Below are positions 9,386-31,225 of a DNA stretch of 64,000 nt, in pieces. Location: the NCBI GenBank assembly GCA_044892525.1, contig CM097885.1:6882001-6946000 (forward strand), written 5' to 3'. The stretch comes from Schmidtea polychroa. Lineage: Eukaryota. The notes under the pieces were generated by a model. The model saw nothing but the letters and a program-made list of their open reading frames with translations. It was not told where the DNA came from and did no database searches. A program made the position numbers and the translations under genes. How positions within the stretch are numbered: position 1 is the first letter of the stretch; each line of letters begins with the position of its first letter.

Positions 9386-9918
9386 CAGATTTCCATTGCC
9401 TTGATTCTGCAAGATTCGGAAGCGGACTTGAGTATTTGTGAATATTGAACATTTATTTTTGTGACAGCCCCTTTTTCCTTGTTATAAATGTAATTATTGT
9501 TGTGGATGTAATATAATTTTTATTGTCTCTCGGTGATTGTTTTTGGCATGCATGATATGGGATTAAAAGTGAACAATAGGACGGTATCAGATATAGGTAG
9601 CACTACAGAGTCGTCCCCTTGGACCAGGGAAGGACCGAATGATGTGTAGAGGAATGGGTAAGACCTTCTACGGCGCCATGGAACCCGAACCGAGACAGGG
9701 TTAGGAGTAGTCTTAAGGCAGAGGCTCACCTGCTAACCTTTTCCGACCCGTGTGAGCAGCACCAACGTGGAACATCACCACGGGCTCATACGTGGGAATA
9801 TGCATTTGATCATCTGGTGTATGTATGGGAAGTGCCTGAGCGGAACGATGACGCCTTGTATGAGTGAAGGTTGCGCGTGCGTAATTTTTCTCTTCCCCAC
9901 ATATGCCAACATGATTTT

Positions 9919-9936
9919 TGGGGGCTCAGCCGGGAT
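9919..9936 (+). promoter_or_regulatory. Primer-binding site complementary to the 3' 18 nt of a tRNA-Pro
   Basis: TGGGGGCTCAGCCGGGAT versus the canonical tRNA-Pro PBS of MLV, TGGGGGCTCGTCCGGGAT (16/18). Lies 7 nt after the LTR end. Confidence 0.85.
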
Positions 9937-10374: not shown

Positions 10375-10854
10375 ATGTCGGAAGCTAGACAACATCTACA
10401 ACAGCTAAGCCGGTTCATCGAAATAGAAAATGATTCAATAAAAACATTAAAGGAAAAACTGAAACAAATAGAACTGTTAGAACAACAAAGCCACAACGCA
10501 CCGCTGATATCCAAACAAAACTTTCTAACCGACAGATTAGGATCAACAAATACCGATACCGACTTGTCTACCCATTACCAATGGATGCAGCAACGACTCG
10601 ACGACCCCGCTCTGAACATCGAATATGTGAGGATACGCGAACAAGTCAAAACTCTGTCTCAGCGGATACGAACATCAATAGTAGAGAAAGCAGCGGCCTT
10701 GAGAACTTGTAACATTTGCAAGATGCGACCTGTCAAAACTCTGATTCTACCTTGTGGGCACCTTATCCATTGTGACGAATGTGCCGCCAGTTTAATCCGT
10801 TGTTCTATGTGCACATGTGTAATAAAAGAGAAGCACACAATCTATTTCAGTTAG
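10375..10854 (+). CDS. Coiled-coil plus C-terminal IAP-type RING finger protein (putative E3 ligase, no BIR)
   Basis: CNICKMRPVKTLILPCGHLIHCDECAASLIRCSMCTCVIKEKHTIYFS*. RING spacing and the terminal aromatic-Ser tail are as in IAP/MDM2-class RINGs. Confidence 0.8.
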   Translation: MSEARQHLQQLSRFIEIENDSIKTLKEKLKQIELLEQQSHNAPLISKQNFLTDRLGSTNTDTDLSTHYQWMQQRLDDPALNIEYVRIREQVKTLSQRIRTSIVEKAAALRTCNICKMRPVKTLILPCGHLIHCDECAASLIRCSMCTCVIKEKHTIYFS

Positions 10855-11446
10855 GTACGCGATCGTCGCTCGGTGAAGGAAATTGGATGATTAACAATTA
10901 GACTAAACATTTTGATATTTTTGTTCTGATTTAATTCGGTAATGTTTTATAATGATAGCATATATTATCTGTAATGTGGAGGAAATAACTAATAAATCCT
11001 TTTTGTGTATTCATTTCATTATACGAAGTTATAAATTGATTTGTGTTGTTATAATTTTCACCATGAAGAAAGGGCATTTTAAAATTTAAAATGATTATTT
11101 AAAGTGGAACTAGTCCCGTCATAGGGTTAAAGGGGGAATAAACCGAGCCACCTTCGGGAGGTACGATGTTGGAAACCGTTTGGGGAGGGACAACCGATCA
11201 CCCCGAGTAAGAGATGTAAAGCGAGGTACCATCGCGAATATTGAAAAGTTTCTGCGGTATGGCTGATCACCATACCAATGTAGAAATGGATCAATGCGAT
11301 CGTTTTGTGTTTTGAGCAAGGGGAAAAGGGGAAACATTCCAAAGCGGTACAGATTAGGTCGACAAATAAAAGTAAAAATAGGAAGATGACAGTATAGAAT
11401 AAAGACAGAAAAGGAACGGAAGCATGCAGAGTTTAGAGACATTAGG

Positions 11447-11745
11447 GCCGAGCTGTCGAAAAGTCCAGCCGGTCAGGGAAATTGAAACTGAGCTGTGAAA
11501 AGTCCAGCCAGTCGGGGATAATAAGGCCGAGTTGTTGAATAGTCCAACCGGTGAGGAGAAGAAGATTGAGCTGTTGAATAGTGCCAGCCAGTCGTAAGAT
11601 CGAGTTGTTGAATAGTCCAACCGGTCAGGAGAAGAAGATTGAGCTGTTGAATAGTGCCAGCCAGTCGTAAGATCGAGTTGTTGAATAGTCCAACCGGTCA
11701 GGAGAGGAAGATTGAGCTGTTGAATAGTGCCAGCCAGTCGTAAAG
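11447..11745 (+). repeat. Tandem repeat in the 5' leader: 73-bp higher-order unit built from two related subunits (34 + 39 bp)
   Basis: GAG(C/T)TGTTGAATAGT cores at 11568, 11602, 11641, 11675 and 11714 (period 73). More diverged copies lie upstream, about 8 subunits in all. Confidence 0.9.
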
Positions 11746-13129
11746 GCCTAAAGTAATAGTGAGATAGCATTTAAGCTACAAGTTGATAACATTTAAATTA
11801 CTAGTGAGATAGAATATTAAAGCTAGCTAGAAGCAAATTGAGTTTGAAATATGGAATTTGAATTTAGAAAGGATTAAACGAGCTCGTAAAAGATGATAGT
11901 AAAATTCTTTTAGTGAAGAAGGAGAAACGGAAAAGGAAAATGAATCAGGAGATAATAGAAACAATGAATAAGTATGAATAGATGATGAACCAAAGAGGAA
12001 ATAATTAATTAATTAAAGGGGATCCCAGATAGGTAGACAAAGTTCTACAGAATTTTTTTTGGGTTTAAACCGGTTAAACGAATTTTGTTTTTGGTTCCAG
12101 AGTAGAACCGAGTAAAAGGAAACAGAGACGAAAGAGTAAATAAAATAGCGGAACCGCGTAAAAGGATTAAGGAAAATATGGGGGGTAATAAGCAGTAACT
12201 GACAACGACCTATCGATATTATAAATGCTAACTATAGATAATTTATACGACTATATAGATAATTGTTACTACCCCAAATAGATAATTTAAAATCGACGAA
12301 AAATATGGGTTGATGGGTAATTATATTCCACGAAGAAGTGTATGAGGGGAAATGAAGAGAAGTATAACAGAGGCCCAAAAACGGTGTCTGTGCTTGAATA
12401 TGGTAAAAAGGAATGATTGATTCGTGTAAGCAAATGCAACACGATATCATTTTTTCATTGTAGATATCTATCCAACCAAGTCAATTCAGAACCAGCTCAA
12501 AAGGAATCTAGAGAATATACAAACAACCCAGGAAAAGCAATTCAGAACCCGCACAAAGGAAAAAACAAATCAATCCGAATACGGAGGACGACAACGACAT
12601 CTTTATCTACGACGGAATTATCGAAATACTTAGCATCGACGTACTAGCAGAAGTCAATCAAGGACTCAGATATCTCCTCCGGAAATCAGCCGAGAAATTA
12701 CGCAGAATATTCCTCGAAGAAAACACTATCAGAACCGAACTCGACCAATTCAGCAGCCGCTAACCGTAGAAAAACCCACGTGGAAAGACAGAAAAGAGTA
12801 AAAAGAAAATCACGGATAAACCCAACCTTAGATCTTCAAGTAAGCCAGGAGACGTATTATTTTCAGGAGACGAATTAGATCAACTCAAAAGAGGACGATC
12901 ATTTAGGCAGCAGAGAGGAATATCACAAGGAGCAAAAAGACCCCACAAAACACCGATATACGATCAAGAAAACCCCACAGCCGGACATACGCCCAGTCGA
13001 TCTAGAAGTAGAGAAAGCCTATCCGATATAACAAACAACCTAACCGGGTCAACAGAAGAATTATCCGTCTATAATTTAGCGACATCGCTGGAAAATTTAA
13101 AAGAAACAATAGAGTTACAAGAACCAGTC

Positions 13130-16078
13130 ATGATGAATGTGGTAAAAACCGACGAGTATAAAGAAAAATTTAGAGGCGAACCGTTTAACGGGAATGCGAA
13201 CAAGTTGGCAACGTTCATAACAAATTTTGAAGTCTATATCGATGTGTGCGGATGGACAGCGGAAGCAATTAGTAAACGAATGCCTCTGTTTTTGTGCGAT
13301 AGCGCACTCGAAGTGTATCTAGAAGCAAAAGAAAGAAATACGAAATTAGACAATTGGGAAAGCATCAAAACATTTTTGAGGAAAACCTTCGGAGCCAGCA
13401 AACCGATAAATCAAGCGTTAGGTGAACTGGCAAGTAGAAAACAAAGAGCAAATGAATCCATAACGTTATATGCGAGTGAATTGCGAAGATTGGCAAAAAA
13501 GGCCATGAACGGAAACTTGCCGGAGGAAAATCTAATTGGTTACTTCATAGAAGGACTGCGCCGAGAAGAGGTAAGGGCCTCGGTGGGATGTCAAATGTGT
13601 AAAACACTAGAAGAAGCCATAGATTGGGCCACAAGATGCGAACTACACCTCCCAGCACAAATGAATGTCATGCAAGAGGAGGGAAGAATCGCTACAGCAA
13701 CGGTGAAAACGGAAAACGGAGATAACAACAATCATGAACCCAAGATGAATCAGTTTATACCAGGAGCACATCAAATCTTCAAACCACCACAAGGACGATC
13801 AAATGGGAATAACAGTGAACGCAACAACTCGAACAATGGGAACAACTTTAATAATCGACGAAATATGAACGATAACAAACAATGCCGAATATGCGGTAAA
13901 CCAGGACATTGGGATAGAGATTGTTACCGAAACGCAAATTGCAATAGGTGTGGACGACGAGGACACACGGAAAATATATGCCAATTGAGAGGATGTTTTA
14001 ACTGCGGTCAACCAGGTCATATCTCAAGAGACTGTCGAGAAAGGAGCCAACAACAACGACCACCACAGCGAAATAATAACTATGCATCAAATCCGCAACG
14101 ACAAAGTAATCCTAGTGAGGGAAAGCAAATGAACGTGATGCAAGAAATTTCACAAATGAAACAGATGATGCAACAAATGATGAGACCGAGACAAGAACCA
14201 GTAGCACAACAAACCCAGAATATACGCATGATGAGGAGCACCGAGAATCTTAATAATTATGAAGTGCAACAACATGCACAAGAATGGCAAAGACTACAAG
14301 CTGAAGAAGAAAGGATAAAAAGAGAGCGAATTCAGCAACGACAAGAACAACCATTACGAATAAATATGATGAGAATGGTAAGGGAGATAAAAGAGCAATA
14401 TTGTTACAATTACGGTAAAAATCCAAGAGTTGTACCTATGAGCGAACCCGAGAAACCGAAAGAAACAATTACAGCAGCAAAAAAGGAAAATTCAACAACA
14501 CCGCTAAAAGGAAATCAGAGAATTCAGAAAATATTTTGGAAAAAGATAAAAGATAAAATCGAAAGAGAAAATGAGAAAACAAAAACAGAAGCAGAAGCGG
14601 AAAATAACAAAAATAAAAAACGGATTAATCATCTAAATCATGATATGATACAAGAATTAGACTCAGAGGAGCTAACGACATTCGAGAACAAAAAGTTAAA
14701 GAAAGTACCAAGAATGAGAAATTTGCGAATTAATATGATGAGGACAACAAAGAAGGTGTCGTCAACAGATGACGATGAGGATTACGTGAGTAGCCTTGGT
14801 GGAGAAATGTTACAGTTAAATGAAAATATCGACCAACTAAGAGAAAAGATCGGAGCAGATGAGGATGAAAGTGAAAGCGACGTGACAAGCGAAAGCGAAG
14901 ACGAGAATATCGAAATGAAATTGAGAAAAGAAAGAGAAGAAGCGATAAAACAAGTAAAGGAAATACTTCCAGTGGTGGTAAGAAACCAGGAATTCATTGA
15001 CATCATACCATACAGACGCTTCATACAAAAGATAATGAAACTAGAAAGAAACGAAAAAGATCTAATACCAAACGAGGAAAAAGCGATAATAAAGAAGTAT
15101 ATGGAAAAAATGAAACAAGCGGAGACAACACGCTATGTAATAAAAATCGGAACGAGTAAAGGACTCGAGAGAATATGGATAAAAAATGCAGTTACAGACG
15201 ATCTTTTCGATTGGATAAGAGAACATTTGGGCAGCTCGAGAAAGAAAGAATACCTGTATCAATATCAAGGAGAACAAATCAAACCAGACATGCACCTAAT
15301 AGATGCATTGATCTGGCCAGGAGAAACTCAAATATTGAAATTGCATAAAGAGAAGCAACCAGCAAATATTCACGAATGGGCTAAAGACGCCAAGGCCGAG
15401 TATGACTTTAACATCAAGCTGAAGCTGGAACAAATAAAACAATGCACCTTGCGACGAAATCTAGATAAATTAATCAAACAAATCCAAGAACAAGTTGAAG
15501 ATAACTGGGATTTGCTCATAACAAGACGAACTGCAGACATGCATGAACTAATGAGCCGACTGCGAGATACAGAACTGCTCCGAATGAGTGATTGGAGAAC
15601 CATAAATTTGATCCACAAATATGGAAGGTTGAAAGAAACGCAACCGCAGAAATTAGAAATAACCATATGGTTACCAAACGAGGAGAAACGACGAATAAAG
15701 ATGAGTAATCAGAGTACGGTGGATGACTTAGTAACCAAGATAAACCAAGAGGTAACGGAAAAAGTACGAAGCGAGAGTAGCGACGGGATGATAGATGATG
15801 TAGTCCTGATGTACGATAAAATAATATTACGGGCCGAAGACGACACCTCGCTAAGCGAAATGGGAATGTGGGATAATCATCAAATCATCAGAATATTACC
15901 CATGGACGAATTCCGAACAAGAGATGTAACATACCAGAAAGAGATACGGGACAGGATGAAAACGCTATACCAAAAATCAGTGGAGATAATTGAAATTCAT
16001 CAACAATGGCTAAAGGAAAAAGAGCTTCAAGGGAAAATAAAGAAACTGAGTACTAGATCCTGCAGACGAACCCCATGA
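13130..16078 (+). CDS. gag: Gag (capsid plus three CCHC knuckles) with long C-terminal extension carrying ubiquitin-like domains
   Basis: Retrotransposon-gag-like F.G...L..F...FE / Q...ES...YA.EL..LA / F..GL blocks, plus CRICGKPGHWDRDC, CNRCGRRGHTENIC and CFNCGQPGHISRDC. The frame is open without ATG from 12770. Confidence 0.9.
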   Translation: MMNVVKTDEYKEKFRGEPFNGNANKLATFITNFEVYIDVCGWTAEAISKRMPLFLCDSALEVYLEAKERNTKLDNWESIKTFLRKTFGASKPINQALGELASRKQRANESITLYASELRRLAKKAMNGNLPEENLIGYFIEGLRREEVRASVGCQMCKTLEEAIDWATRCELHLPAQMNVMQEEGRIATATVKTENGDNNNHEPKMNQFIPGAHQIFKPPQGRSNGNNSERNNSNNGNNFNNRRNMNDNKQCRICGKPGHWDRDCYRNANCNRCGRRGHTENICQLRGCFNCGQPGHISRDCRERSQQQRPPQRNNNYASNPQRQSNPSEGKQMNVMQEISQMKQMMQQMMRPRQEPVAQQTQNIRMMRSTENLNNYEVQQHAQEWQRLQAEEERIKRERIQQRQEQPLRINMMRMVREIKEQYCYNYGKNPRVVPMSEPEKPKETITAAKKENSTTPLKGNQRIQKIFWKKIKDKIERENEKTKTEAEAENNKNKKRINHLNHDMIQELDSEELTTFENKKLKKVPRMRNLRINMMRTTKKVSSTDDDEDYVSSLGGEMLQLNENIDQLREKIGADEDESESDVTSESEDENIEMKLRKEREEAIKQVKEILPVVVRNQEFIDIIPYRRFIQKIMKLERNEKDLIPNEEKAIIKKYMEKMKQAETTRYVIKIGTSKGLERIWIKNAVTDDLFDWIREHLGSSRKKEYLYQYQGEQIKPDMHLIDALIWPGETQILKLHKEKQPANIHEWAKDAKAEYDFNIKLKLEQIKQCTLRRNLDKLIKQIQEQVEDNWDLLITRRTADMHELMSRLRDTELLRMSDWRTINLIHKYGRLKETQPQKLEITIWLPNEEKRRIKMSNQSTVDDLVTKINQEVTEKVRSESSDGMIDDVVLMYDKIILRAEDDTSLSEMGMWDNHQIIRILPMDEFRTRDVTYQKEIRDRMKTLYQKSVEIIEIHQQWLKEKELQGKIKKLSTRSCRRTP

Positions 16079-16084
16079 GAAAGG

Positions 16085-17158
16085 ATGTGGAATGCGGAAA
16101 ACAAAGAATGGGAAATCAGGAAAGGGATTTTCGTAGAAACAGACATTGGTGAGACAGAAAGTGAATCAGAAGAAGAGGAAGATGAACCTCCAAAATACGA
16201 AGAGGACGAAATAGAATCGATATCGGACGACGAAAGCGAAACGGATGTTACGTCAGAAAGTGAAATGGAAACTAGACATATTCATGCGATGAGAAAGAAA
16301 GAACGCGAATATGCCGATATGGACAGCGAAGAAGCGATGGAAGCTCGAGAACGAGAAGAGAAGGAAAGATATAAACAATTAGGTGATATCTTAGCAACGG
16401 GAGCAAAAAATCAAAAACGTCAAGTAATAGCATTGGCTAACATCATCCTAAAGACATCAGAGAATATCCACAATCTAAGAGAAATGGCGAAAGCGATTGA
16501 GGAATACCGACAATATAACGAATGGTACCCAGAACAGCTAGAACAAATTATTAGGAAATGGAGAAACCAAGAATGGGCACAAGATACCCAGGAAAGGTAT
16601 CGTATCCGAGTCAAGTATCCCGACAAAAGCATTGAGGATACAGAAGTACATCCAACCACAAAGATCAGAGAGTTAAAAAAGAAATTAGCATACGAAACTC
16701 CATTTCACCTACAACTATTCGGAAAATCGTTGGATGATAATGCAGATGTCGGAATAACACCCATGAGATTGGGGGAGATCAATGTATTGACAATGGCAGA
16801 AACATTGGGAAAACCGATTAAAAAGAAGAGCAAATCCAGTAAACCTACGAAAGGTAGCTTGAGTACACCAAGCCCTAACAAAGTGGCGAGTAAATCGAAT
16901 GAAACCGAGGAAATCGAGGAAATTATATTGGAAGACAGCGATGAAGGAGCTGGAGAAAGATCACCAATTCTGGTAAGATGGCCGACAGGGGCTGAAATAT
17001 GGACAACAAGCCAACCATCAACTAGCTATCAACAACCAAATAAGCTGAACATAGAGGAAATTGCCGATAATACGACAGAAACCGAAATTGACGAACAATT
17101 TCAACGACAAAAAAAGGACCAACGAAAGCAATATCAGAAGGTCAAACGGACAAAATAA
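16085..17158 (+). CDS. In-frame continuation of gag beyond a single TGA; acidic region plus a ubiquitin-like domain
   Basis: Same frame as gag, separated only by TGA GAA AGG. RIRVKYPDKSIEDTEVHPTTKIRELKKKL...LQLFGKSLDDN is ubiquitin-like. Confidence 0.7.
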   Translation: MWNAENKEWEIRKGIFVETDIGETESESEEEEDEPPKYEEDEIESISDDESETDVTSESEMETRHIHAMRKKEREYADMDSEEAMEAREREEKERYKQLGDILATGAKNQKRQVIALANIILKTSENIHNLREMAKAIEEYRQYNEWYPEQLEQIIRKWRNQEWAQDTQERYRIRVKYPDKSIEDTEVHPTTKIRELKKKLAYETPFHLQLFGKSLDDNADVGITPMRLGEINVLTMAETLGKPIKKKSKSSKPTKGSLSTPSPNKVASKSNETEEIEEIILEDSDEGAGERSPILVRWPTGAEIWTTSQPSTSYQQPNKLNIEEIADNTTETEIDEQFQRQKKDQRKQYQKVKRTK

Positions 17159-17178
17159 TAGACGAATGGAATGAGTGG

Positions 17179-20100
17179 TTGAGAAACAACGATAGCTCAT
17201 TGCCAAGAACAGATAATGAGAGAAACCCGAGTTACGAAACAACCAGAGAAACTGGAACAATGATGGAGAAACGGGCAAAAGGAAGACCTAGGAAGCAAGG
17301 AGAAAAACCAGAATTCAAAACCAGAGAACAACTGAAACAAGAACAAGGACAAGTCAGATTAGAGAAACTGGATAAAATAGTGTGGGATCTAAAAGAGGCC
17401 CAGCCAACAATCGAAAGAGGCGAAAAATGGATACGAGAGCTAGTAAAAGATATGCTAATAATAACGAACCCACAATTGCGACGATTATGGCAACGAAAAG
17501 TAGCAAGCGTAGATGCCAGACAGCTATGGAATACAATATCCGGAATAATTCCGAAATTAATCAAAGAGAAGACAAAAACCACTAAAACCGATTGGGAAGA
17601 GACAAGAAGAGTAATTGAACAATTAACTTTAAACGCAAACGACGACGAACATCATTTAGTAGTATTAACGTATCTAATGTACAATTTGATGGGATTAGCA
17701 GCAAGGAAAATACCTAACAAACAATTCGCAAATCATGTAGAAATGACCGTTACAATCATTGAAAATACAATCGAACCACATATTATCCGCGCCGGTGGGT
17801 GGAAAAGACTCATACAAGCGCCACGAAAAAACGAGCAAGAGAGATCAATGCAAATTCGGTTGAAGAAATTGCTAAACGAGCTGGAATGGGAATTGCCATT
17901 GAAAGACCCAGCCAGCAGAAAAGCGTCGATTAATTCACTAATGATGACCATGATGATATGGATGCTCTGCACCAGTGGAGCCGCGGGATTTACCATTTAC
18001 GACTGTGACAATTCGATAATAGGAGAAAGATACTCCCTGAGAGATATAGAGGAATGTAGACAGGCATTTCCGAATAAATTAGATATAGTAAAAAAGAAAG
18101 TCTCCTATCACGTATACCAAGAATCAGATTTCATTAGAACGCAAGCTAGAGAATGCGTAGTATCGAAGAAAGTGTTGGCATACTACTGTGGACAATACTC
18201 ATATTCAACCCTTATATTACCTGGATTAGATAAAGAAATGGTACCTATACAACGGGAAGACTGTAAAGAGCTTTTTAGAACCGGAGCGATGAGAATCAGG
18301 GATGGAGTAACAATACACGGACAAAGCGGAATGATCAAGACGGAAAGTATCTATGTAGCCGGACGAGTAAAATCAACTGATGGATCATGTAACGGAGGCA
18401 CATATACGATCAGAGGAGAAGTGATCTCGGGAGTAGTAGTAATTGAGTCCTACACAGTGGAGTTGAAGGAATACGAAGCACAATTCGACGCAAACAACTA
18501 TCAAATGAAAACCAACCCAGCATGCAGAGCTACGGAAAACGTGTGTAGAACGGGAATTTCGACTATAATATATGAAGCTAACACCCAAAAATGCCGACTC
18601 CAATTGCTAAAAAGTGCTCTATTCAATGAAGTAAAAGGAGAAATTTACGAAAACGAGGATGACGATGAAGAGAATGGAAACGTAAGGATGCGAAATGGGA
18701 AACCAGTTCCACCATCCCCCAAAGAAAAGAGACTCACAACACAAAAATCACCAACGGCATTAATTACAGATGATCCAGATATCGGTATGAGATTCATCAG
18801 AGAAAAAGAGACCACCAAATGTGACAGCATAGTATATCGGACGAACTACGCAGGTATCTACATGTCAAGGCAAGTAATAGACCGAGCAGTGGGAAAGGTA
18901 GCAACAGAGGACGTAAAATTGTACCTGTACGCCAATAACAAAATGGACTTTTTATTTCATCGAGGACAAACGACAATGCAAAAAGTGTATTACGATCTTA
19001 TACAAAATGACTGTTCATTGAATAAAGAGATACTAAAAACAAAATTAGCCATCGCAATAACACACCCAGATAACACAATGCCATCACTCCCGTTACCGGA
19101 TGGACATTTTGGTAGAATGGTGGGAGAGGTAATGTATACATATGCATGTACCAAGACATTTGCGCGACTGCCAAGAAAGCCCACAATTCCACCAGGGAAA
19201 TGTGCAAATGAATTAGAAATTAGCTACAAAGGGCGAAACAGATTCGTTCAACCCGTCACTAGAATTATGAACCCAATTGGATTTTATCCGAACACCTTTA
19301 ACTGTTCAAATGCATACGGACCGTTATATGAAAAACCCGATGGGAAATGGATAATGTTACCGGTAAAAACCGAAGTACAAGAACCTAAAAAGTTTGGATT
19401 AATAGAACTCGCAACGGAGCAAGATTTCAAACCAATTGATGTGTCAAAAGCAGGTATGTACTCACCAGAGGATTTAGAAACAGCACGACTAAACGTACTA
19501 TTCCCAGCAAGGCGAGAATCCATTCTATCGAATATGGTTACCATAACTGGGGGAACGAATTTCCAGTCAGGCCCCAATTACGAACTATTATTGTCACCCG
19601 ATCATTTTCAACAAGCCACGTCAAACATGATGAAAGCAATGTGGGGAAGATTTCTAGTGTTCGGTCAAATGATGGCAGGAATATTGGGAATCATCTTAAT
19701 TATTCAGATCGTCAGGGTAATATTGACCCAAATGTTGGCATGCTTCGATATATACAAGCGAGAAAAGAAAGTGAATTGGAAATTGATAGTAGGTTTTCTA
19801 CCATTCTTGGCAAAAACAATGGTGTTGCACGGTCATTCTAAAGACATACATAGAATAAAACGATTGATCAAAATACTGACGAAAATAAAAGGAACTGACG
19901 AGGAAGTCGGTAGACGATTTCGGAAAACCATGTATGATGAAGCAACGAGAGCACAACTAAAAAAGAACAAACCAAAATTCCTAGACAGATTTAGAAATCG
20001 ATCAAACAGCAGCGATAGTGATGATGACGACAACGGGAATGACAAATACCCATATCCAAGTAGAAACCCGAATGAAAAGCCAATGGAAACAGCGCCATAT

Positions 20101-23100
20101 TGGGAGAAAGAAAAAACAAATACCTGGATAGCCAACGGAAGTTATATACCACCAGATATCGTTGGACAACAAACAGCTTTGACCATGACACAAAATATGT
20201 ATCCACAGTTACCAAGTCAACCAGGGATGAACTATATGCCGACCCGAAGAACGAAAAGCGTAGACCAAGCTGATGACGTCAGAACAATAGCAGTAATGAG
20301 TTCACCAGGAGGAGCAGCAGTAACGGTCATGATCCAAATCAACGGGAAAGAGACGAGCGCAATGATAGATACCGGAGCAAATGTATCAGCAATAGCAATA
20401 AACCAAATACCCAGTAAATGTTGGAAAGACATCGAACAAACAACTATCCATATTATTGCATGCAGTAAAGAAACCGTAGACGTAGTAGGAAGATGGTGGA
20501 CTACGTTACGATATCAAGATAATGAAATTGAAACGTATCTAGCGGTGATACCCAAACTGAGTGAACCATGTATAATCGGAACGGATTTAATGCCGGAATT
20601 GTTCAAAGAAGTAGTAATAGATCTAACAACAATGTGCCTAAAAGATAAAATGGGTAGAATATGCAAAATGAACGCAATAATCAGATGTCCGGAGAAAATA
20701 ATTGTACCAGCAAAATCCCAGATGATATGTCAAATAAAAGTGGATGCAGGAATGGAAGGAGAAGCCATTTTTGAGCCAAGTAAATCATTCGAAAAACGAC
20801 GAGAATTACCATTAGCAAGAGAAATAATAACAATAAAGGAAGACAGGGAAATACCAATCAACATCACAAATTTCGAGGAAGAAGATAAAATCATATATGA
20901 AAATGAAAGATTGGGTAGATTGACACCCATGATAGACATCGAATTACCAAAAATCACCAATGAAACAACGAAAGCTGACGAATTATGGACAATCGATAGC
21001 ACATTGCTAACGGAAAAGGAAAAGGAAAGACTTCAACAATTATTGATAGAATATAAAGATATATTCGCAATTTCGGATTTAGATTTGGGAGCATGCGATG
21101 TTACATTACACGCAATACCATTAATAGACGAAACTCCAATCGCACTACGTCCATACAAACTAGCAGAGAAGCAAAAAGAGATAGCCGAAGCAGAAGTACA
21201 AAAAATGCTAGATGCACAAGTGATCGAACCAAGTTGTTCGCCATGGCAATTTCCAGTAGTCATGGTGAAGAAAAAGGACGGTACTCAGAGATTCTGTATC
21301 GATTATCGGAAACTAAATGCAGTAACAAAAAGAGACACATACCCGTTACCAGACATCAATGAGATGTTACTTATGTTACAGGGGGCCGCATATTTTACAT
21401 CTTTAGATCTGAAAAGCGGATATTGGCAGATCAAAGTCAAGGAGGAAGACAAAGAGAAAACAGCATTCACATTGGGCCGAGATCTATACCAATTCAGGAA
21501 AATGCCGTTCGGACTGACCAATGCCCCAGCATCATTCCAGAGATGTATGAATTTTGTCACACACGGGATCAAGCAGTGTATGGTATATATTGATGATTTA
21601 TTAATATATTCAGCAACATTCGAACAACATTTGGAAGACATTAGAAACGTGTTCATCCGATTACGACAATGGAAATTGAAACTCAAACCATCCAAATGTG
21701 ATTGGGCAAAAGAAAAGGTTACGTTCTTAGGACAAATAGTGTCAGCAAAAGGCAAAGAACCAGATCCAAGAAACATAGAAAAAATAAAAACATGTCCAGC
21801 ACCAAAAACTGTCACCCAAGTTCAAGAATTTCTCGGATTATGCGGATATTATCGAAAATTCATCAAAAACTATGCAGGTATTGCGAAACCAATACAGGAA
21901 TTAGTGAAAAAGGATATTTCATTTATTTGGGGTGCAGAACAACAAAAAGCATTTGAGACATTGCGAGATAAATTAATTGAAGCCCCAATACTAGTACATC
22001 CTGATTTCAAGAAACCGTTCTTATTAGCAACAGATGCAAGTGGATATGCAGCCGGAGCAATATTAGGACAACTGGATGAAGAAGGAAAAGAAAGAGTGAT
22101 TGGATACTACAGCAGAACGTTTAAAAAGCATGAGAAAAACTATTCCGTAACCGAGAGAGAAGCGTTAGCAATTATACAAGCGATTAAACATTTTCGATAT
22201 TTGTTGTGGGGACACGAAATATGTATCACAACAGATCATCAACCACTAGTATGGCTTGGTCAACACAAAGAAGCTTCAAGTAGATTGATGCGATGGGCAA
22301 TGCAGTTACAAGAATATTCACCGTTCATAAAATTCAAAGCGGGAAGAGCGAATGCCAATGCAGATTGTATGTCCAGATTTATCTTTCCAGATTTAGTAGA
22401 TCACGAAATGCAACGAATATGTCTGATGGTAGCAGAAGATTTAGATTTTTGCCAATTACGGAAAGACCAACAAGAGGATACAGAGTTGAAGCAAATCATT
22501 GAGTATGTGAAAACAGGGAAAGCAGAGGTATATGAGAAAGATCAAAAATTGAAGGAGCATATGGATAAACATCGACATCGATATATAATAGAGAAAGATT
22601 GGTTATTGATAATGGATGGCGAGAAAAGACTGATGTGCATTCCCGAGAATAGACGTAAAGATCTGCTAACACAATACCATGACGGAAGACTCGGAGGACA
22701 TATGTCATCTAAAAAGACGTTGGCACGAATGAAACAAAAATACTTCTGGCCTACATTGACCGAGGATGTAACGGAATGGGTAAAGAACTGTATAACTTGC
22801 GCGACCAGAAAAAACACGGGAACGAAATGGAAGGCACCATTAAAGCCAATGCCAGTACCAGCGGAACCAATGACAATGATATCAATGGACGTAGTCGGTC
22901 CACTACCAGAATCAGATAGAGGAAATATATATATATTGGTAATCACAGATTATTTGACAAAATTCCCCGAAGCATTCGCAATGGCAGATCAGAAAGCAAG
23001 AACAATCGCGAAAATACTAGTAGAGGAGATATGCTGTCGATATGGAACACCAAAACAGATATTAACTGATCAAGGAACAAATTTCATGAGCGAAATAATG

Positions 23101-26100
23101 AGCGAAGTTACCAACTACTTCAAGATCGCAAAATTTAGAACATCACCGTACCATCCACAAACTAATGGTATGACAGAAAGATTCAATGGAACACTGATTC
23201 AAATGTTATCAAATTATGTCGATCGTCATCAACGCGACTGGGACGAGTATATAAAATTATGTTTAATGGCTTACAGAATGTCGATTCACGCGTCCACAAA
23301 GATGAGTCCGTTTAGGTTGATGTACGGCAGAGAATGCAATATGCCAATGGATCTAGAATATCAGCCACCAATATCACAATACATGGAAATAGACGATTAT
23401 GTAACCAAGTTCAAGGAAAGAATGCAGGAAATCTGGGAAACTGCAGGATTGAATATAAAATTTTATCAAGAAAGTTACAAAGAGTTACATGATAGAAAGA
23501 AAAACGTCAAACAGCATACGTTTCAAACAGGCGATTGGGTGATGATCGAAACACCAGAATTAATCCCAGGAACCACCAAAAAATTACAACGAAACGGTAA
23601 AGGTCCGTATGAGATTCTATTCATCGGAGAAACCAATGTGAGAGTACGATTGGTAAACAACCCCTTCACGAGGCCAATATATGTAAATGTGGCACGATGT
23701 AAGCCAATACCGAAAACAGCCACCAGCCAGCCGGAAGGGCGAACATTAACAACAAGATCACAAACGTATAGAATAAATATGTTACAGCAGATAAACGAAC
23801 CAACAGGTAACCGATTGGGGTTACAACCATCAGAAGCCGAGAAAATCATAAAGGAAGTGAAAGCTAAAATGCCCGGATGGGCAGAAGACAGATTAGATTT
23901 TGAGATATTGGGAGGTCTGCTAACAATGATAGAAAACTATGCAAATCGAGAAAGAACACACCCATTGCTCAGGGTAGTTAAAAGTCAATGGCCTATATTA
24001 TTCACGATCACAGACCATTACGGAGACACACCCCTGCACAAGCTTTTAAAGGTGGGTAGTAACGAACAGATATTAGAAACAATTGAAGCATTTCGCGATT
24101 GTAACATTTCGACAGATCAAGAAAACAACCAAGGTTGCACTCCACTAATGATAGCAGCCAATCGGGATAAAGCTAAAGATATTATTATCGCATTACTTGA
24201 AACTGGGTCAAAGATAACCACACAAGATCACAACCATAAAAATGCACTACATCATGCAATCGAAGGGAAAAGCACTGAAGCATTCATAATCTTAGTAGAT
24301 CTATTATCGTACGAGGATAATAGGGAGATAGGAAACATGTATGACGGGTTATTAACTGCAATCAAAGAGAAATTAATAACAATTACTGGAATACTAATTG
24401 CATGGAGGAACCCGATCAAAAACGATTATATGGTAGATATAAACGAAACATTTACCAAAGGAGAAAACACCTTGATGAGGGAAGCGATGAGAGGACATCA
24501 CCTATTCGAAATTCCAAATCAACTACTACAACGTGGCATAAAGTTTTCAAATCACAAAGACGAGCAACTAATCAGAAACCGAATTACCAACTTCGAAAAA
24601 GCTATATCTCAATTTACCGATAAAGTACAAGTAAAATTTTGGGAAACCGTGAGTGTATTATATATGATGGAAAATATGAATAACATTCGAGAAACTTACC
24701 TAAGCATTATTCAAGTTCTAACGGCAGAGGAACGCATTAACAGTTCGAACAAGAAAAAGATAAAAATCAAGAAAATAACAGCAAGAGAGTCTGAGAAACG
24801 AGTCGATCAAATAATAAGATATATAGCAACAACAAGTAAACCAAAGATAATAAACTCCGACCAAGAGATAGTAATACGTAAGGCTAAAGAAGTATTCTTT
24901 GAAGAAATGCAAGATCTATCCGATGAAGCGATACTAGCAAAAATAACAAAAACAGTACACACCTACGCGAGAGACCAGACCACAAATCTAGACATAGAAA
25001 AAATAAAAACATTCATACCACTAGCATTCACCTTACCGACGAAAGATTCAAGAACACCATTACAACAAGCCATCTTAGCAGCAAAAGAAAACAGAGCCAT
25101 AACCATCATAAGAATTCTTAGAGACTTCGGGGAAGAATCTAATGCAAAAAATGAACAAGGAGAAACAGCAATGATGTATGCAGCAATAACAAATATACAC
25201 CCGAAAACATTACATATACTACATCAATCAGGATCAAGACTGAACGAAATATCGAACGAAGGGAATTCTACCATGGATTGGGCAACAATACAACCAAACT
25301 TGGAAATGATTAGATTCATTTGTAAAAATGCTACAAGAACTGAGGTAGAAAATATCTGTAAAAACACGTCACAGTTCCAATGGAACACGATACGGATGAA
25401 CTTAGAAGCCATGAAGTTATTGCTAACATGGAAAATACCGCAAACCAATAAATATGCAATAAATATAAATGAGTTCTACGAAAACGGAGAAAATGCTATG
25501 GTTAAAAATACACTAACAAAAGGAGGAACTCCGAAAATCATAATGATCGTATTGAACAGAGAAGACCTCAAATTCACGCAAAATCTAAACGAACAAAAGC
25601 GAATCGGAAAACATCGTCGGATACAATTAAGAGAATTAGTAAAAGAATGGAATAGAAAGAGACATGTAGCAACAGGCAGAAAGGAGTTCGAATTCGAAGC
25701 AAAATTAGCAAGAAACAGAGTGCTAACGGCATACCGCAGATTGTTGAATGATATAAATGTCGAGGACGACATTTTAAACGATAGCGGGGGAGATAAAGAC
25801 GATAAAGACGACGATAATAATGAAAAAGGTCGAAACGGGAATAAAGAGAAAGAGAAATCAGAGGAGAATAATCAAGAAAATAACGACGCGAGCAGGAAAA
25901 AAGAGGAAAATAACCCGGGAAACCGAAGGAAGCAAGAAGAAAAGACGAATAGTGGAAAACAGAGGGTATGCCTACTTTTTACCAACAAAGAAATGGAGAC
26001 AAATATGATGATAATGATACTCGTATTAACAATGGTGGAAATGATAACAGCCCAGGGAGGAATGAGAACGATAAAAGAAGCCAAGGAAACGGAAAATAAG

Positions 26101-27006
26101 GACAACAAAGAGGAAGAACTAAAACAAGAAAAGAAAAAACAAGTACAAGAGCAGCAATGGGATCTAAAAGAAGAATGGGATCTAAAAGAAAGGTGTATAT
26201 TAGGAAGATGTATGTCTAGAGCTTATCAGAGACTAGTGTTAAAAAATGAAGATGCAGAACCAATAACGGAAGTGGGAATACAAGAAGCGTACCAACATCG
26301 AAACGGGAAGAAGATAACAAAAGTCAAATGGAAAGAGGTACACCTGAGTAAAGGAGGGGAAATAGTGATAACACAGCTTCAACCAAGAAAAGAGCACAAA
26401 GTGTGTATTTCGAGGCTAGGCCCAGGAGAAAATTGTCTACAATATGTAACGCAACAACAACCACCAAAGGAATATACGGTATGTATCCTGAGAAACGGTC
26501 CAGAAAGAGAATGTCGACGATACCCTGGGAAAAGAGGGAGGAAAAGAAAAATCAATGATGAAAAAGATGAGCAAGGAAAACGCAAGAAAAACAGTGAGAA
26601 ACATCAAGACAATTATGTATCCGAGGAGGAGATGGAGAAAATACAAAAAATGGCAAAGGAAGGTATGAACGAGGAAATAGCAAGAATACGAGGAATGATG
26701 AAAGGAAATGGCAAAGACGGTAATCTAAAAAGCACAGAAGCAATATCAACAATAACGAACAAGGGAAAAGCGGAAATTATAAGCGTAAAACAGATGATGT
26801 GGATCAGCGGCATAATAATAACAGGGGCCTTTTTAATCATAACGGGGGGGACAATAAAAATAATCAAAGATAGACGGCATCGCGGAGAACTAGAAATGGC
26901 CAGAATAAGAAATTTTCAACATCGTGTAAAACGACCAAGTAATATCAAGCAGGAACAGTGGGTGGAGGCCTGTAATGCTCAGCGCCCTCCAAGCTCACGT
27001 ATATAG
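17179..27006 (+). CDS. pol: 3,275-aa polyprotein: AT-hook, Bcl-2-like, Env-like glycoprotein, PR, RT, RNase H, IN, ankyrin repeats, C-terminal membrane protein
   Basis: Single ORF whose frame opens at 17092 and overlaps the upstream ORF in the -1 frame. Motifs are listed in the sub-features. Confidence 0.95.
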   Translation: MRNNDSSLPRTDNERNPSYETTRETGTMMEKRAKGRPRKQGEKPEFKTREQLKQEQGQVRLEKLDKIVWDLKEAQPTIERGEKWIRELVKDMLIITNPQLRRLWQRKVASVDARQLWNTISGIIPKLIKEKTKTTKTDWEETRRVIEQLTLNANDDEHHLVVLTYLMYNLMGLAARKIPNKQFANHVEMTVTIIENTIEPHIIRAGGWKRLIQAPRKNEQERSMQIRLKKLLNELEWELPLKDPASRKASINSLMMTMMIWMLCTSGAAGFTIYDCDNSIIGERYSLRDIEECRQAFPNKLDIVKKKVSYHVYQESDFIRTQARECVVSKKVLAYYCGQYSYSTLILPGLDKEMVPIQREDCKELFRTGAMRIRDGVTIHGQSGMIKTESIYVAGRVKSTDGSCNGGTYTIRGEVISGVVVIESYTVELKEYEAQFDANNYQMKTNPACRATENVCRTGISTIIYEANTQKCRLQLLKSALFNEVKGEIYENEDDDEENGNVRMRNGKPVPPSPKEKRLTTQKSPTALITDDPDIGMRFIREKETTKCDSIVYRTNYAGIYMSRQVIDRAVGKVATEDVKLYLYANNKMDFLFHRGQTTMQKVYYDLIQNDCSLNKEILKTKLAIAITHPDNTMPSLPLPDGHFGRMVGEVMYTYACTKTFARLPRKPTIPPGKCANELEISYKGRNRFVQPVTRIMNPIGFYPNTFNCSNAYGPLYEKPDGKWIMLPVKTEVQEPKKFGLIELATEQDFKPIDVSKAGMYSPEDLETARLNVLFPARRESILSNMVTITGGTNFQSGPNYELLLSPDHFQQATSNMMKAMWGRFLVFGQMMAGILGIILIIQIVRVILTQMLACFDIYKREKKVNWKLIVGFLPFLAKTMVLHGHSKDIHRIKRLIKILTKIKGTDEEVGRRFRKTMYDEATRAQLKKNKPKFLDRFRNRSNSSDSDDDDNGNDKYPYPSRNPNEKPMETAPYWEKEKTNTWIANGSYIPPDIVGQQTALTMTQNMYPQLPSQPGMNYMPTRRTKSVDQADDVRTIAVMSSPGGAAVTVMIQINGKETSAMIDTGANVSAIAINQIPSKCWKDIEQTTIHIIACSKETVDVVGRWWTTLRYQDNEIETYLAVIPKLSEPCIIGTDLMPELFKEVVIDLTTMCLKDKMGRICKMNAIIRCPEKIIVPAKSQMICQIKVDAGMEGEAIFEPSKSFEKRRELPLAREIITIKEDREIPINITNFEEEDKIIYENERLGRLTPMIDIELPKITNETTKADELWTIDSTLLTEKEKERLQQLLIEYKDIFAISDLDLGACDVTLHAIPLIDETPIALRPYKLAEKQKEIAEAEVQKMLDAQVIEPSCSPWQFPVVMVKKKDGTQRFCIDYRKLNAVTKRDTYPLPDINEMLLMLQGAAYFTSLDLKSGYWQIKVKEEDKEKTAFTLGRDLYQFRKMPFGLTNAPASFQRCMNFVTHGIKQCMVYIDDLLIYSATFEQHLEDIRNVFIRLRQWKLKLKPSKCDWAKEKVTFLGQIVSAKGKEPDPRNIEKIKTCPAPKTVTQVQEFLGLCGYYRKFIKNYAGIAKPIQELVKKDISFIWGAEQQKAFETLRDKLIEAPILVHPDFKKPFLLATDASGYAAGAILGQLDEEGKERVIGYYSRTFKKHEKNYSVTEREALAIIQAIKHFRYLLWGHEICITTDHQPLVWLGQHKEASSRLMRWAMQLQEYSPFIKFKAGRANANADCMSRFIFPDLVDHEMQRICLMVAEDLDFCQLRKDQQEDTELKQIIEYVKTGKAEVYEKDQKLKEHMDKHRHRYIIEKDWLLIMDGEKRLMCIPENRRKDLLTQYHDGRLGGHMSSKKTLARMKQKYFWPTLTEDVTEWVKNCITCATRKNTGTKWKAPLKPMPVPAEPMTMISMDVVGPLPESDRGNIYILVITDYLTKFPEAFAMADQKARTIAKILVEEICCRYGTPKQILTDQGTNFMSEIMSEVTNYFKIAKFRTSPYHPQTNGMTERFNGTLIQMLSNYVDRHQRDWDEYIKLCLMAYRMSIHASTKMSPFRLMYGRECNMPMDLEYQPPISQYMEIDDYVTKFKERMQEIWETAGLNIKFYQESYKELHDRKKNVKQHTFQTGDWVMIETPELIPGTTKKLQRNGKGPYEILFIGETNVRVRLVNNPFTRPIYVNVARCKPIPKTATSQPEGRTLTTRSQTYRINMLQQINEPTGNRLGLQPSEAEKIIKEVKAKMPGWAEDRLDFEILGGLLTMIENYANRERTHPLLRVVKSQWPILFTITDHYGDTPLHKLLKVGSNEQILETIEAFRDCNISTDQENNQGCTPLMIAANRDKAKDIIIALLETGSKITTQDHNHKNALHHAIEGKSTEAFIILVDLLSYEDNREIGNMYDGLLTAIKEKLITITGILIAWRNPIKNDYMVDINETFTKGENTLMREAMRGHHLFEIPNQLLQRGIKFSNHKDEQLIRNRITNFEKAISQFTDKVQVKFWETVSVLYMMENMNNIRETYLSIIQVLTAEERINSSNKKKIKIKKITARESEKRVDQIIRYIATTSKPKIINSDQEIVIRKAKEVFFEEMQDLSDEAILAKITKTVHTYARDQTTNLDIEKIKTFIPLAFTLPTKDSRTPLQQAILAAKENRAITIIRILRDFGEESNAKNEQGETAMMYAAITNIHPKTLHILHQSGSRLNEISNEGNSTMDWATIQPNLEMIRFICKNATRTEVENICKNTSQFQWNTIRMNLEAMKLLLTWKIPQTNKYAININEFYENGENAMVKNTLTKGGTPKIIMIVLNREDLKFTQNLNEQKRIGKHRRIQLRELVKEWNRKRHVATGRKEFEFEAKLARNRVLTAYRRLLNDINVEDDILNDSGGDKDDKDDDNNEKGRNGNKEKEKSEENNQENNDASRKKEENNPGNRRKQEEKTNSGKQRVCLLFTNKEMETNMMIMILVLTMVEMITAQGGMRTIKEAKETENKDNKEEELKQEKKKQVQEQQWDLKEEWDLKERCILGRCMSRAYQRLVLKNEDAEPITEVGIQEAYQHRNGKKITKVKWKEVHLSKGGEIVITQLQPRKEHKVCISRLGPGENCLQYVTQQQPPKEYTVCILRNGPERECRRYPGKRGRKRKINDEKDEQGKRKKNSEKHQDNYVSEEEMEKIQKMAKEGMNEEIARIRGMMKGNGKDGNLKSTEAISTITNKGKAEIISVKQMMWISGIIITGAFLIITGGTIKIIKDRRHRGELEMARIRNFQHRVKRPSNIKQEQWVEACNAQRPPSSRI
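17400..17825 (+). other. Bcl-2-like domain within the polyprotein
   Basis: IEPHIIRAGGWKRL matches BH2 (L..WI...GGW..F). ETRRVIEQLTLNANDDEHHLVVLTYL sits in the BH1 position, but NWGR is degenerate. Confidence 0.6.
17941..19740 (+). other. Envelope-like glycoprotein resembling chuvirus-type (class III) fusion proteins
   Basis: Signal-like MMTMMIWMLCTSGAAG, then FTIYDC...SLRDIEEC, EC....LAYYCGQYS, SCNGG, ANNKMDF...QNDC.L, GEVMY..C, CANEL.I.......FVQPVTRI and a TM WGRFLVFGQMMAGILGIILIIQIV. The order of blocks follows chuvirus-like glycoproteins as I recall them. Confidence 0.72.
20320..20640 (+). other. Retropepsin (aspartic protease), followed by a dUTPase-like spacer
   Basis: AMIDTGANVS (D at 20368) and IIGTDL. 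Confidence 0.95.
21140..22380 (+). other. Reverse transcriptase and RNase H, Ty3/gypsy type
   Basis: PVVMVKKKDG..RFCIDYRKLN, LDLKSGYWQI, MPFGLTNAPASFQ, YIDD (21586-21597), TDASGYAAGAIL, YSVTEREALAI, TDHQPL. Confidence 0.98.
22620..23710 (+). other. Integrase (HHCC, DD35E, GPY/F)
   Basis: HDGRLGGH...CITC. D at 22888, D at 23068 and E at 23176 (35-residue spacing). GPY at 23602. Confidence 0.97.
24010..25520 (+). other. Ankyrin-repeat region after integrase
   Basis: GDTPLHKLL, GCTPLMIAA, KNALHHAI, GENTLMREA, RTPLQQAI, GETAMMYAA, GNSTMDWA. Confidence 0.85.
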
Positions 27007-27174
27007 AAAGGATTATGACTGTATATAGATTGTAAAAAGTAAGTAGGTAATATTTATTTATATAACAGTATTCTATATTTTTATATAAGCGCGGTATCAA
27101 TAGTATATAATGATGGGGATAATTAATATGAAAATAAAATTAGATAAGGATTGAAAAGTATATATAAATTAAGA

Positions 27175-27534
27175 ATGGAACGAATAGGCGAGGAAGTAAA
27201 TCACAGTACGACAACCGAGGAGATGTGGAAACAACAATGTGCAATGTTAACTCAAGTGATTTCGAATTTACAGGAACAAGGACTCGCTGTACAAAGAAGC
27301 TTAGTCGAAAGTTTAAATAAAGGCTTCAGTTATGTAAGAATAATCGAAGACCAACGAATAAAAATAGAACAAATGCAGCGAGAGATAGACCGAATATCAC
27401 GATACAGCCAGGTGCAAGAAGAGGAGTTAATAAGAATCGCGGAAGAGATGGAGCGAGAGGAGATAGAAGACTGGTCAGAATGGTTAACCAGCAGGGAAGA
27501 GGGCGGACAAGAGGCCGACTCTTCCAGCCAATAA
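27175..27534 (+). CDS. Accessory coiled-coil protein, about 119 aa (first ATG at 27175)
   Basis: Heptad-rich Q/E/R sequence with the same codon style as the element's other ORFs. Confidence 0.6.
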   Translation: MERIGEEVNHSTTTEEMWKQQCAMLTQVISNLQEQGLAVQRSLVESLNKGFSYVRIIEDQRIKIEQMQREIDRISRYSQVQEEELIRIAEEMEREEIEDWSEWLTSREEGGQEADSSSQ

Positions 27535-27623
27535 ATATAACCTAAAATAGCAATGTAAATAACTGTAAATAAAAATACGAAACTGTACCAGTAATGAATA
27601 TATGTATATATATAATTATAGAA

Positions 27624-29012
27624 ATGGATAAGCGACAACGAGAAGAATTCAAAGAAATTGTTGAACAAGTCAGAAAGTCCACCACAATTCGAATACACAA
27701 CCATGTAACGTGTGGAATATGCAAGAGCTTATTAAGAGAACCTCACCAAACCAGATGTGGATGCAGAATGTGCAGAGAATGTGTAGAGGAGATAATAAAG
27801 AAGGGACCACAATGGTGCCCAGTATGCAAAGAAACAATGATAACAAGTTTGGGAGATACAAACGAAGATAAAGCAGCTGTAAAAGATATGTTGAATGCAA
27901 ACCTAGGATGTAAAAACACCCCATGTAATTGGCGAGGAGTGATATGGGAAGTGAGGCAACATATGGAGCAATGTGAGTATAAAATCAGTCAATGCAAACG
28001 TTGCCAAGAAGAGATTAAAGTCAATGAAGAAGCAGAACATCAAAGTCGATGCGAAGAAAGACTGGAGAAATGTGAGTATTGCGGAGAAACCGACACCTGG
28101 AAAAAACTAATCAGTCAACATCACAACATACAAGAGAAGAAAGTGTGCGCAGAATTCAGAGGAGAATGCCCCAACAAATGCGATAAACCCGGAGTAATAA
28201 AACTCGCTCAACATCTAAAAGAATGTGAAAGAAAAAAGATAACGTGTGTGCTAGGAAAATGGGGATGTCAGAAACAATTACACCGAGGGGAATTACCCCA
28301 ACATCTAGCAGAAAACGTATCAACACACGCGGAAATATGGTCAACAGTATTACAAGAAAACGAAAGGAAAACCGAAAACTTAGAAAGAGAAATAGTCTCG
28401 CTAAAAGCGTTGGTAAAAGAACTATTGGAAGAAAAGGAAGCATTTGAAGAGGCGAGAACAAGTACAAAGATACAGACAGATCTAGTGGAAACTAGCAACA
28501 TTATGGTGAAAGAACTACATCAAAAAGTAAGCGAATTAAACCTCAACGAATTAATACCCACGGCTCCATACATATGGAAAATAACGGGAGTAAAAGAGAA
28601 GATGCAGAGAGCGAGAAATGGAAAGGATACAACATTACTAAGTCCAGCATTCTACTCATGGAAAAACGGGTATAAAATGAAAATGAAAGCATACCCCAAT
28701 GGGGATGGAAGTGCATACGGAACGCATTTCTCAGTATTCTTCTTGATGTGCAAAGGGCTATACGACGAGTTAATAGAATGGTCATTCAAAGCAAAAATAG
28801 ACCTCGTAATGATGAACTATCAAAGTATACATGAACAGAGTTTCCATACAGCGGGAAACCTCGTATGTTACCAAAGGCCCTTGGAAGAAGAAGGACCAGC
28901 AACTGGAGCACCGAATTTCATCCTACAGCGGAAAGCAGAAGACATGACGAGAAACGACACTATATACATAAAAATAGCGGTGAGGCGAGACGGGAAGAGT
29001 AGGACTGAGTAG
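27624..29012 (+). CDS. Intronless TRAF-family protein (RING, TRAF zinc fingers, coiled coil, MATH) carried by the retroelement
   Basis: CGICKSLLREPHQTRCGCRMCREC...CPVC, C.N..C.W.G...EV.QH...C repeats, and YIWKITG...SPAFYS..NGYKM....YPNGDG...GTH.SVF....KG.YD....W.F. Confidence 0.92.
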   Translation: MDKRQREEFKEIVEQVRKSTTIRIHNHVTCGICKSLLREPHQTRCGCRMCRECVEEIIKKGPQWCPVCKETMITSLGDTNEDKAAVKDMLNANLGCKNTPCNWRGVIWEVRQHMEQCEYKISQCKRCQEEIKVNEEAEHQSRCEERLEKCEYCGETDTWKKLISQHHNIQEKKVCAEFRGECPNKCDKPGVIKLAQHLKECERKKITCVLGKWGCQKQLHRGELPQHLAENVSTHAEIWSTVLQENERKTENLEREIVSLKALVKELLEEKEAFEEARTSTKIQTDLVETSNIMVKELHQKVSELNLNELIPTAPYIWKITGVKEKMQRARNGKDTTLLSPAFYSWKNGYKMKMKAYPNGDGSAYGTHFSVFFLMCKGLYDELIEWSFKAKIDLVMMNYQSIHEQSFHTAGNLVCYQRPLEEEGPATGAPNFILQRKAEDMTRNDTIYIKIAVRRDGKSRTE

Positions 29013-30267: not shown

Positions 30268-30442
30268 AGATAAATGGAAAAGATAAAAAATATAAAAATC
30301 GGGACCTATATCCCAACAAAAAAATTAATGGTACAGTAAAAGTAGGAAAGGGACTGTAGCCCTGATTATATAAATAACATATAATTGTATAAGCATAAGC
30401 CGCACTGTAGCGCAATCATTAATTATGTATATATTATAGAAA

Positions 30443-31165: not shown

Positions 31166-31225
31166 AACCAACAAAAAAGCGATGTATATAAATATGTATA
31201 AAATAACTAAATGTATATCAGTATC

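Follow-up and report, generated by a model that had tools for sequence, protein, structure and literature searches.

Burro elements, also designated GYPSM1, are the closest described counterparts of the locus analysed here. As presented in PMC6431247, which traces them to Jurka 2007 and Grohme 2018, they carry MATH_TRAF_C, BIR, ankyrin, BCL2-like and Ubi2/SUMO-like domains, and an in-frame Env separates Gag from Pol. The element class, the types of cargo and the idea that this cargo meddles in apoptosis and ubiquitination are thus already in print (PMC6431247; general background in PMC11410931 and PMC7958881). One product, the BIR-RING IAP of Burro1 (B-IAP), is reported to shield stem cells against death by caspases (Lee et al. 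2026 Dev Cell, cited in PMC13465017). We analysed 64,000 nucleotides of Schmidtea polychroa DNA (assembly GCA_044892525.1, contig CM097885.1, positions 6,882,001 to 6,946,000 of the forward strand), referred to below as the window. It contains a single Ty3/Gypsy long terminal repeat (LTR) retroelement with Env, 30,635 bp long, which holds all five module types that a sequence-only reading of this DNA had proposed: TRAF, IAP-type RING, ankyrin, Bcl-2 and ubiquitin-like (Ubl). Judged by its architecture, compared with Burro-1 to -4 by description only, this is a Burro-type giant Gypsy LTR element. We consider it reasonably probable that it is a young, broken copy of a high-copy, Burro-layout family whose selected modules would act via several separate contacts, keeping the host cell alive and damping stress or innate signalling during replication.

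The modules were identified with Pfam (TRAF, RING, ankyrin), with profile and fold searches (Bcl-2) and with a pooled profile (Ubl). They are given here with their positions in the window and, where listed, the ratio of nonsynonymous to synonymous substitution rates (dN/dS).

10375..10854, + strand: 159-aa accessory open reading frame (ORF) with an N-terminal part of about 100 aa and a C-terminal IAP-type C3HC4 RING (Pfam, PDB search)
15119..15358, + strand: Ubl1, without C-terminal di-Gly (pooled profile; ESM Atlas lead at 0.86-0.88; dN/dS 0.08)
15644..15910, + strand: Ubl2 (Pfam E 0.05; pooled profile; dN/dS 0.05)
16586..16801, + strand: Ubl3, between two breaks of the polyprotein (Pfam E 0.011; pooled profile; dN/dS 0.11)
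17389..17829, + strand: predicted Bcl-2-fold domain (profile, predicted structure, fold search; dN/dS 0.04)
23950..24600, + strand: ankyrin block 1, about 3 repeats clear by eye (Pfam; dN/dS 0.07)
25051..25398, + strand: ankyrin block 2, 19% identical to block 1 (dN/dS 0.13)
27594..29012, + strand: intronless full-length TRAF with RING, zinc fingers, coiled coil and MATH (Pfam, PDB search)

Selection was assessed by pairwise Nei-Gojobori dN/dS over the window and 49-50 further copies; the 50 copies come from the best TRAF matches with a RING roughly as far away as expected, a sample that leans to intact copies. Overall, the cargo modules gave values of 0.04-0.24, including 0.24 (0.13-0.39) for the RING, 0.17 for the N-terminal part of its ORF and 0.14-0.16 for the parts of TRAF, as compared with 0.02 for the reverse transcriptase (RT) and 0.03 for Env. 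Three non-coding stretches yielded 0.62-0.85 in all frames, and five cargo modules read in shifted frames 1.19-3.68. Net frameshifts were seen in 0-2 of 50 copies per cargo module, versus more than half of the aligned copies in the non-coding stretches. Every cargo module is under purifying selection, and because cargo dN/dS lies well below both the non-coding and the shifted-frame controls, neutral carriage is rejected, in agreement with the sequence-only reading. We found no per-module dN/dS for Burro in the literature covered by our search; Grohme 2018 and Lee 2026 lay outside it and may cover the family, the BIR loss and selection on the cargo.

The family is abundant: at least 90 matches to the element TRAF occur in the genome at 92-100% identity (90 scored of 1835 candidates). 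The two LTRs of the window copy differ by 6 mismatches and 1 gap over 4202 bases, and this near-identity, together with TG...CA ends and a 4-bp target duplication, indicates a young insertion. Its polyprotein is broken twice, by a stop at 16076-16078, at the end of the Gag frame, and by a frame change within 17092-17158; the piece between the breaks (16085-17158) carries Ubl3. The stop is present in 0 of 50 other copies, 22 of which have a frame that is open across both fetched stretches. Contigs of three putative-RNA runs cover the element in 30, 26 and 15 of 30 bins (flanking control: 30, 13 and 14 of 30). GT-AG joints spliced in the host TRAF gene nearby show that these runs hold RNA.

Like Burro, the element exceeds 30 kb and has multi-kb LTRs (4.2 kb here), places Env in frame between Gag and the protease, RT, RNase H and integrase (apart from the breaks in the window copy), and carries Ubl and then a BCL2-like domain ahead of Env, as well as ankyrins, MATH/TRAF and accessory ORFs. 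Unlike Burro, the window family has no BIR and no MATH within the polyprotein; its TRAF is a whole separate gene, and there are three Ubl copies and two ankyrin blocks. The two features that set it apart from Burro1 proper, the missing MATH inside the polyprotein and the missing BIR-RING IAP accessory ORF, are both present in a sister family in the same genome, whose RT is 90% and whose Env is 73% identical to those of the window element. The families have the backbone and the 5' RING ORF in common. In the sister family, whose frames reach 4791 aa, the polyprotein has its MATH after Ubl2 and ahead of Ubl3, and in 3 of 3 copies with context examined TRAF is directly followed by a BIR-RING ORF of 393 aa; by its arrangement of domains, this family has the published Burro1 layout. 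The window element does share an IAP-type RING with B-IAP, encoded in its case by the 5' BIR-less ORF. The two families are only 25-43% identical in their cargo, and the 5' RING ORFs, both without BIR, are 25% identical.

In a more distant family, with an RT that is 52% identical, Ubl, Bcl-2 and Env again follow one another in that order; across three families, with RT identity as low as 52%, the position of Ubl and Bcl-2 between Gag and Env is thus constant. The fetched stretches of the distant family gave no match to RING, TRAF or ankyrin, which argues that the modules were gained piecemeal. In addition, one copy (L048-L050) matches most of the window polyprotein at 96-99% identity (90% in Ubl3), but identity drops to 44% for the RING ORF and to 67-69% for TRAF, where synonymous sites are at or close to saturation. 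This single case, considered without a formal recombination test, suggests that RING and TRAF ORFs have been exchanged between subfamilies.

Similar cargo was also observed in Maverick-like elements (L047:2943-6342; L164:4777-5232; L165; L166), which show endonuclease VII, polymerase-like, A32-type ATPase and integrase matches. A BIR-less RING ORF is present there in at least 150 copies and lies beside a polymerase-like ORF at 8 of 11 loci, and a 152-aa Bcl-2 that passes the Pfam cut-off adjoins Maverick-like genes. A common origin of this RING ORF and that of the element outside the RING was rejected, as 308 of 500 shuffles scored as high. The Maverick-like cargo appears convergent, with an N-terminal part of its RING ORF that is unrelated to the element's.

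The Bcl-2 domain by itself stays under the Pfam cut-off (E 0.02-0.08); seven of its 10 aligned homologues match Pfam Bcl-2 (best 5e-7), and a profile of the domain finds Bcl-xL with E 0.002. No match was returned by a single-sequence PDB search with the region or by an ESM Atlas search with the domain. A structure model (predicted local distance difference test, pLDDT, 67.5) was used for a wide fold search, in which ranks 1-35 were all Bcl-2-fold proteins; the best match had a Z of 12.3 and a root-mean-square deviation of 2.9 over 137 aligned residues. Foldseek gave Bcl-2-family chains in every listed row, and Bcl-2-like rows were also top-ranked in a viral fold library, in both cases with none at E <= 0.001. 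A BH2-like GGW is conserved in 10 of 10 aligned homologues and in 51 of 51 copies, and the BH1 NWGR motif is replaced in all 51 sequences. The Met-rich segment ahead of Env, checked as a C-terminal anchor, falls below the hydropathy threshold of 1.7. Taken together, the modelling supports a Bcl-2 helical fold for this domain. It resembles viral Bcl-2-fold proteins (herpesvirus BHRF1, African swine fever virus A179L, poxvirus M11L, N1, A52 and A46) in its fold (Z 6-12) and in being carried by a mobile element; unlike them, it sits inside a Gag-Env-Pol polyprotein, is only 6-16% identical and has lost the BH1 motif.

Each of the three Ubl domains is likewise below the Pfam cut-off when searched singly. 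A pooled profile of nine element Ubl domains, built without any ubiquitin sequence, matches single ubiquitin-fold chains with E of about 5e-6, and with the homologue, profile and fold matches of the Bcl-2 domain this upholds the two assignments for which domain searches mattered most. The AlphaFold2 (AF2) model of Ubl1-2 (pLDDT 39) was too poor for a fold search. None of the three domains ends in the di-Gly used for conjugation, and we read them as integral domains, not conjugated modifiers.

The RING ORF matches Pfam zf-C3HC4_3 (E 1.6e-8), and its top PDB matches are the RINGs of cIAP and XIAP (E 5e-10). As in IAP proteins, a C3HC4 RING with an aromatic tail is present at the C-terminus, and all eight zinc ligands are conserved in at least 50 of 51 sequences (the window and its copies). 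A search of a protein database detected no close relatives (17 matches, 23-29% identity). The "IAP-RING" of the sequence-only reading thus stands as far as the RING is concerned. Membership in the IAP family takes at least one BIR domain, and no BIR was found in the RING ORF, elsewhere in the window or in 50 copies, of which 100 stretches were searched; the predicted product is an IAP-type RING without BIR.

For the ankyrin region (23950-25398), Pfam Ank_2 is matched with E 3e-19. IkB proteins are marked by a degron, DSGxxS, and by 6-7 ankyrin repeats in one contiguous array. In the element, the degron is absent from the ankyrin blocks, and the repeats form two separate blocks of about 3 each, not one contiguous array of 6-7. 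Block 2 had no match in the single sister-family copy examined. No IkB was among the best 60 of 168 and the best 60 of 380 PDB matches, a ranking that favours long arrays and in which the planarian RHD-ankyrin proteins were not compared. From sequence, the ankyrins would be classed as generic, and the IkB likeness that had been claimed for them is without support. On the host side, genome searches for RHD DNA-binding and TNF families gave no match, but these searches are insensitive to introns and hence no proof of absence. One RHD-dimer gene was found, which by eye we take to be NFAT-like, with no clear ankyrin match in about 65 kb around it. According to PMC13563047, planarian NF-kB homologues are only divergent ones, and host RHD-ankyrin proteins are reported in planarians by PMC6211748.

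The element TRAF (Pfam MATH E 9e-24) has TRAF3 and TRAF2 as its best matches, and the ligand of its RING that is usually His is Cys in all 51 sequences. The host genome contains a very large TRAF-like cluster around the window, with at least 150 matches (150 scored), mostly at both ends of one contig (C1). The closest non-element matches, 26-32% identical, are single-exon full-length TRAF genes at loci L205-L208 and L210, with open frames of 454-473 aa. In a MATH tree built without ten rows of the host cluster and 14 of 17 from the database, all of them too short, the element TRAFs lie near these single-exon host TRAFs; due to the weak support in this tree, no donor is claimed. Within the window itself, a member of this host cluster, a TRAF-like gene with introns (RING and MATH; 50350-51923, + strand), is spliced in the putative-RNA contigs. 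Its MATH exon recurs identically at three other places, and the element TRAF is 100% identical at two, which suggests segmental duplication or haplotype redundancy. An expansion of planarian TRAFs has been reported (PMC6109357). Caution is called for here, since a count of the "expanded" planarian TRAFs can include element TRAFs present in many copies.

After the 5' RING ORF, the order is Gag with Ubl1-2, Ubl3, the Bcl-2-like domain, Env, protease, RT, RNase H, integrase and the two ankyrin blocks; 3' of the polyprotein follow a 119-aa ORF, the full TRAF gene and more accessory ORFs, all on the + strand. The remaining features are:

5707..5710 and again 36346-36349, no strand: target-site duplication CTAC, 4 bp (sequence inspection)
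5711..9911, + strand: 5' LTR, 4.2 kb, TG...CA ends (LTR comparison)
9919..9936, + strand: primer-binding-site-like stretch, presumably of the tRNA-Pro type (sequence inspection)
13130..16078, + strand: Gag (retrotrans_gag, CCHC knuckles) with Ubl1 and Ubl2 (Pfam, ORFs)
17092..27006, + strand: open frame of 3304 aa with Bcl-2, Env, protease, RT, RNase H, integrase, ankyrins and a C-terminal region (ORFs, Pfam)
17983..19800, + strand: Env, a Monjiviricetes-type fusion glycoprotein with a transmembrane segment from 19669 (Pfam E 7e-72)
20302..23298, + strand: protease, RT, RNase H and integrase in Ty3/Gypsy order (Pfam; dN/dS 0.01-0.02)
27175..27534, + strand: 119-aa accessory ORF with no assigned function (sister-family counterpart 32% identical; dN/dS 0.17)
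29230..31885, + strand: 3' accessory ORFs at 29230-30267, 30443-31165, 31211-31519 and 31520-31885 (ORF list)
32144..36345, + strand: 3' LTR (LTR comparison)

The 3' accessory ORFs have no Pfam match; the last two contain hydrophobic segments, and dN/dS over the first 270 nt of their region is 0.16. No Pfam match was found either for the C-terminal end of the polyprotein (26000-27006), which contains Cys residues and a hydrophobic segment near 26785 and is possibly a second membrane protein. A general Pfam scan, in which no dedicated profile was used, found no dUTPase-like segment between protease and RT, and tRNA and Rfam searches had no matches. A 73-bp tandem repeat (x3) lies between the RING ORF and Gag, at 11450-11743. 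Outside the element, the window holds a broken hAT transposase with BED finger and dimerisation domain (43982-45834, + strand) and an open frame with a C2H2 zinc finger (2-874, - strand) that runs off the window start.

How might such a set of modules work? We suggest that the modules were acquired piecemeal and kept since the cells that produce the element must survive and stay quiet. Processing of the polyprotein by the protease would release or expose the three Ubls, the Bcl-2 domain and the ankyrins, and the separate RING and TRAF products may serve as ubiquitin ligases or may act as decoys for the TRAF and IAP complexes of the host. Because BH1 NWGR is lost, the Bcl-2 fold would more likely be a protein-binding scaffold than a classical BH3 sink. 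Several points weigh against this account. The sampled copies are biased towards intact ones, and the cargo function proposed for the window family is deduced from sequence. Constraint on RING (0.24) and TRAF (0.14-0.16) does not exceed that on low-complexity stretches of the polyprotein (0.19-0.20); therefore, selection shows a need for the proteins, not their role. At the RING position that is Arg in cIAP, all 51 sequences carry T, A or V; XIAP likewise departs from Arg there. The BIR-IAP, the sole cargo with a reported function, is what the window family lacks. For the related Burro1 BIR-IAP, an anti-apoptotic role in stem cells is reported (PMC13465017), which speaks for the account and accords with the sequence-only reading. 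Finally, BURRO1 is described as a PIWI target that is derepressed mainly in differentiated tissue (PMC8532177).

Some of the same data can be read differently, with the three Ubls, the Bcl-2 fold and the ankyrins given new duties in the life cycle of the element itself (folding, processing, Gag-Env membrane anchoring or integrase tethering) and only the RING and TRAF ORFs facing host signalling. The fixed place of Ubl and Bcl-2 between Gag and Env in all three families fits this well, as do their dN/dS of 0.04-0.11, similar to that of Gag and Env (0.03-0.06), and the loss of di-Gly and BH1. However, the polyprotein cargo is only 28-43% identical between families, versus 90% for RT and 73% for Env, a pace that would be typical of host-facing proteins, and we know of no structural role for a Bcl-2 fold in any retroelement. 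We grant this alternative a modest chance.

The sequence-only reading had gone further and proposed one coordinated pathway, in which the RING would be recruited by the TRAF of the same element, NF-kB would be held by the ankyrins in the manner of IkB, and Bcl-2 would block mitochondrial death. The TRAF architecture, nearest TRAF3/TRAF2, and the IAP-type RING, nearest cIAP/XIAP, do resemble mammalian TRAF2-cIAP-IkB/NF-kB signalling, and TRAF adjoins a BIR-IAP in the sister family. The BIR is the part of cIAP that binds TRAF2 and caspases, with BIR1 docking cIAP on TRAF2. Unlike the mammalian system, the window family has no BIR1 for such docking, and its ankyrins have neither an IkB degron nor a contiguous array; since BIR1 and an IkB-type array are both missing, a single TRAF2-cIAP-IkB chain is unlikely. 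The missing IkB matches, the replaced BH1 motif and the piecemeal gain, with only Ubl, Bcl-2 and Env among the matches in the distant family, point the same way, as does the divergence of planarian NF-kB (PMC13563047). In favour of the pathway are the RHD-ankyrin proteins that occur in planarians and the proposal that the ankyrin of a planarian virus mimics IkB (PMC6211748).

More speculative, and in our view doubtful, is an arms race in which the RING and TRAF ORFs are swappable counter-defence cassettes. The BIR-less family would then free-ride on the IAPs of the host and of the Burro1-like sister family, or regulate them via RING-RING dimers, and together with the Maverick-like elements would form a community converging on the control of stem-cell death. 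That the cargo is passenger DNA, caught by chance and carried neutrally, is highly improbable: the two breaks in the window copy and the many host TRAF-like genes available for capture would suit it, but dN/dS intervals well below the non-coding values and the rarity of net frameshifts in the modules do not.

New here are the per-module measure of selection, structural evidence that supports the Bcl-2 fold and a natural Burro1 sister that lacks BIR; the apparent swap of RING and TRAF ORFs between subfamilies and the similar cargo in Maverick-like elements are smaller new points. We still favour modules that act through several separate contacts to keep the element-producing cell alive and quiet. 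With this BIR-less sister, one can ask whether the benefit that Burro1 is reported to bring to stem cells comes from the IAP alone or from the wider kit.

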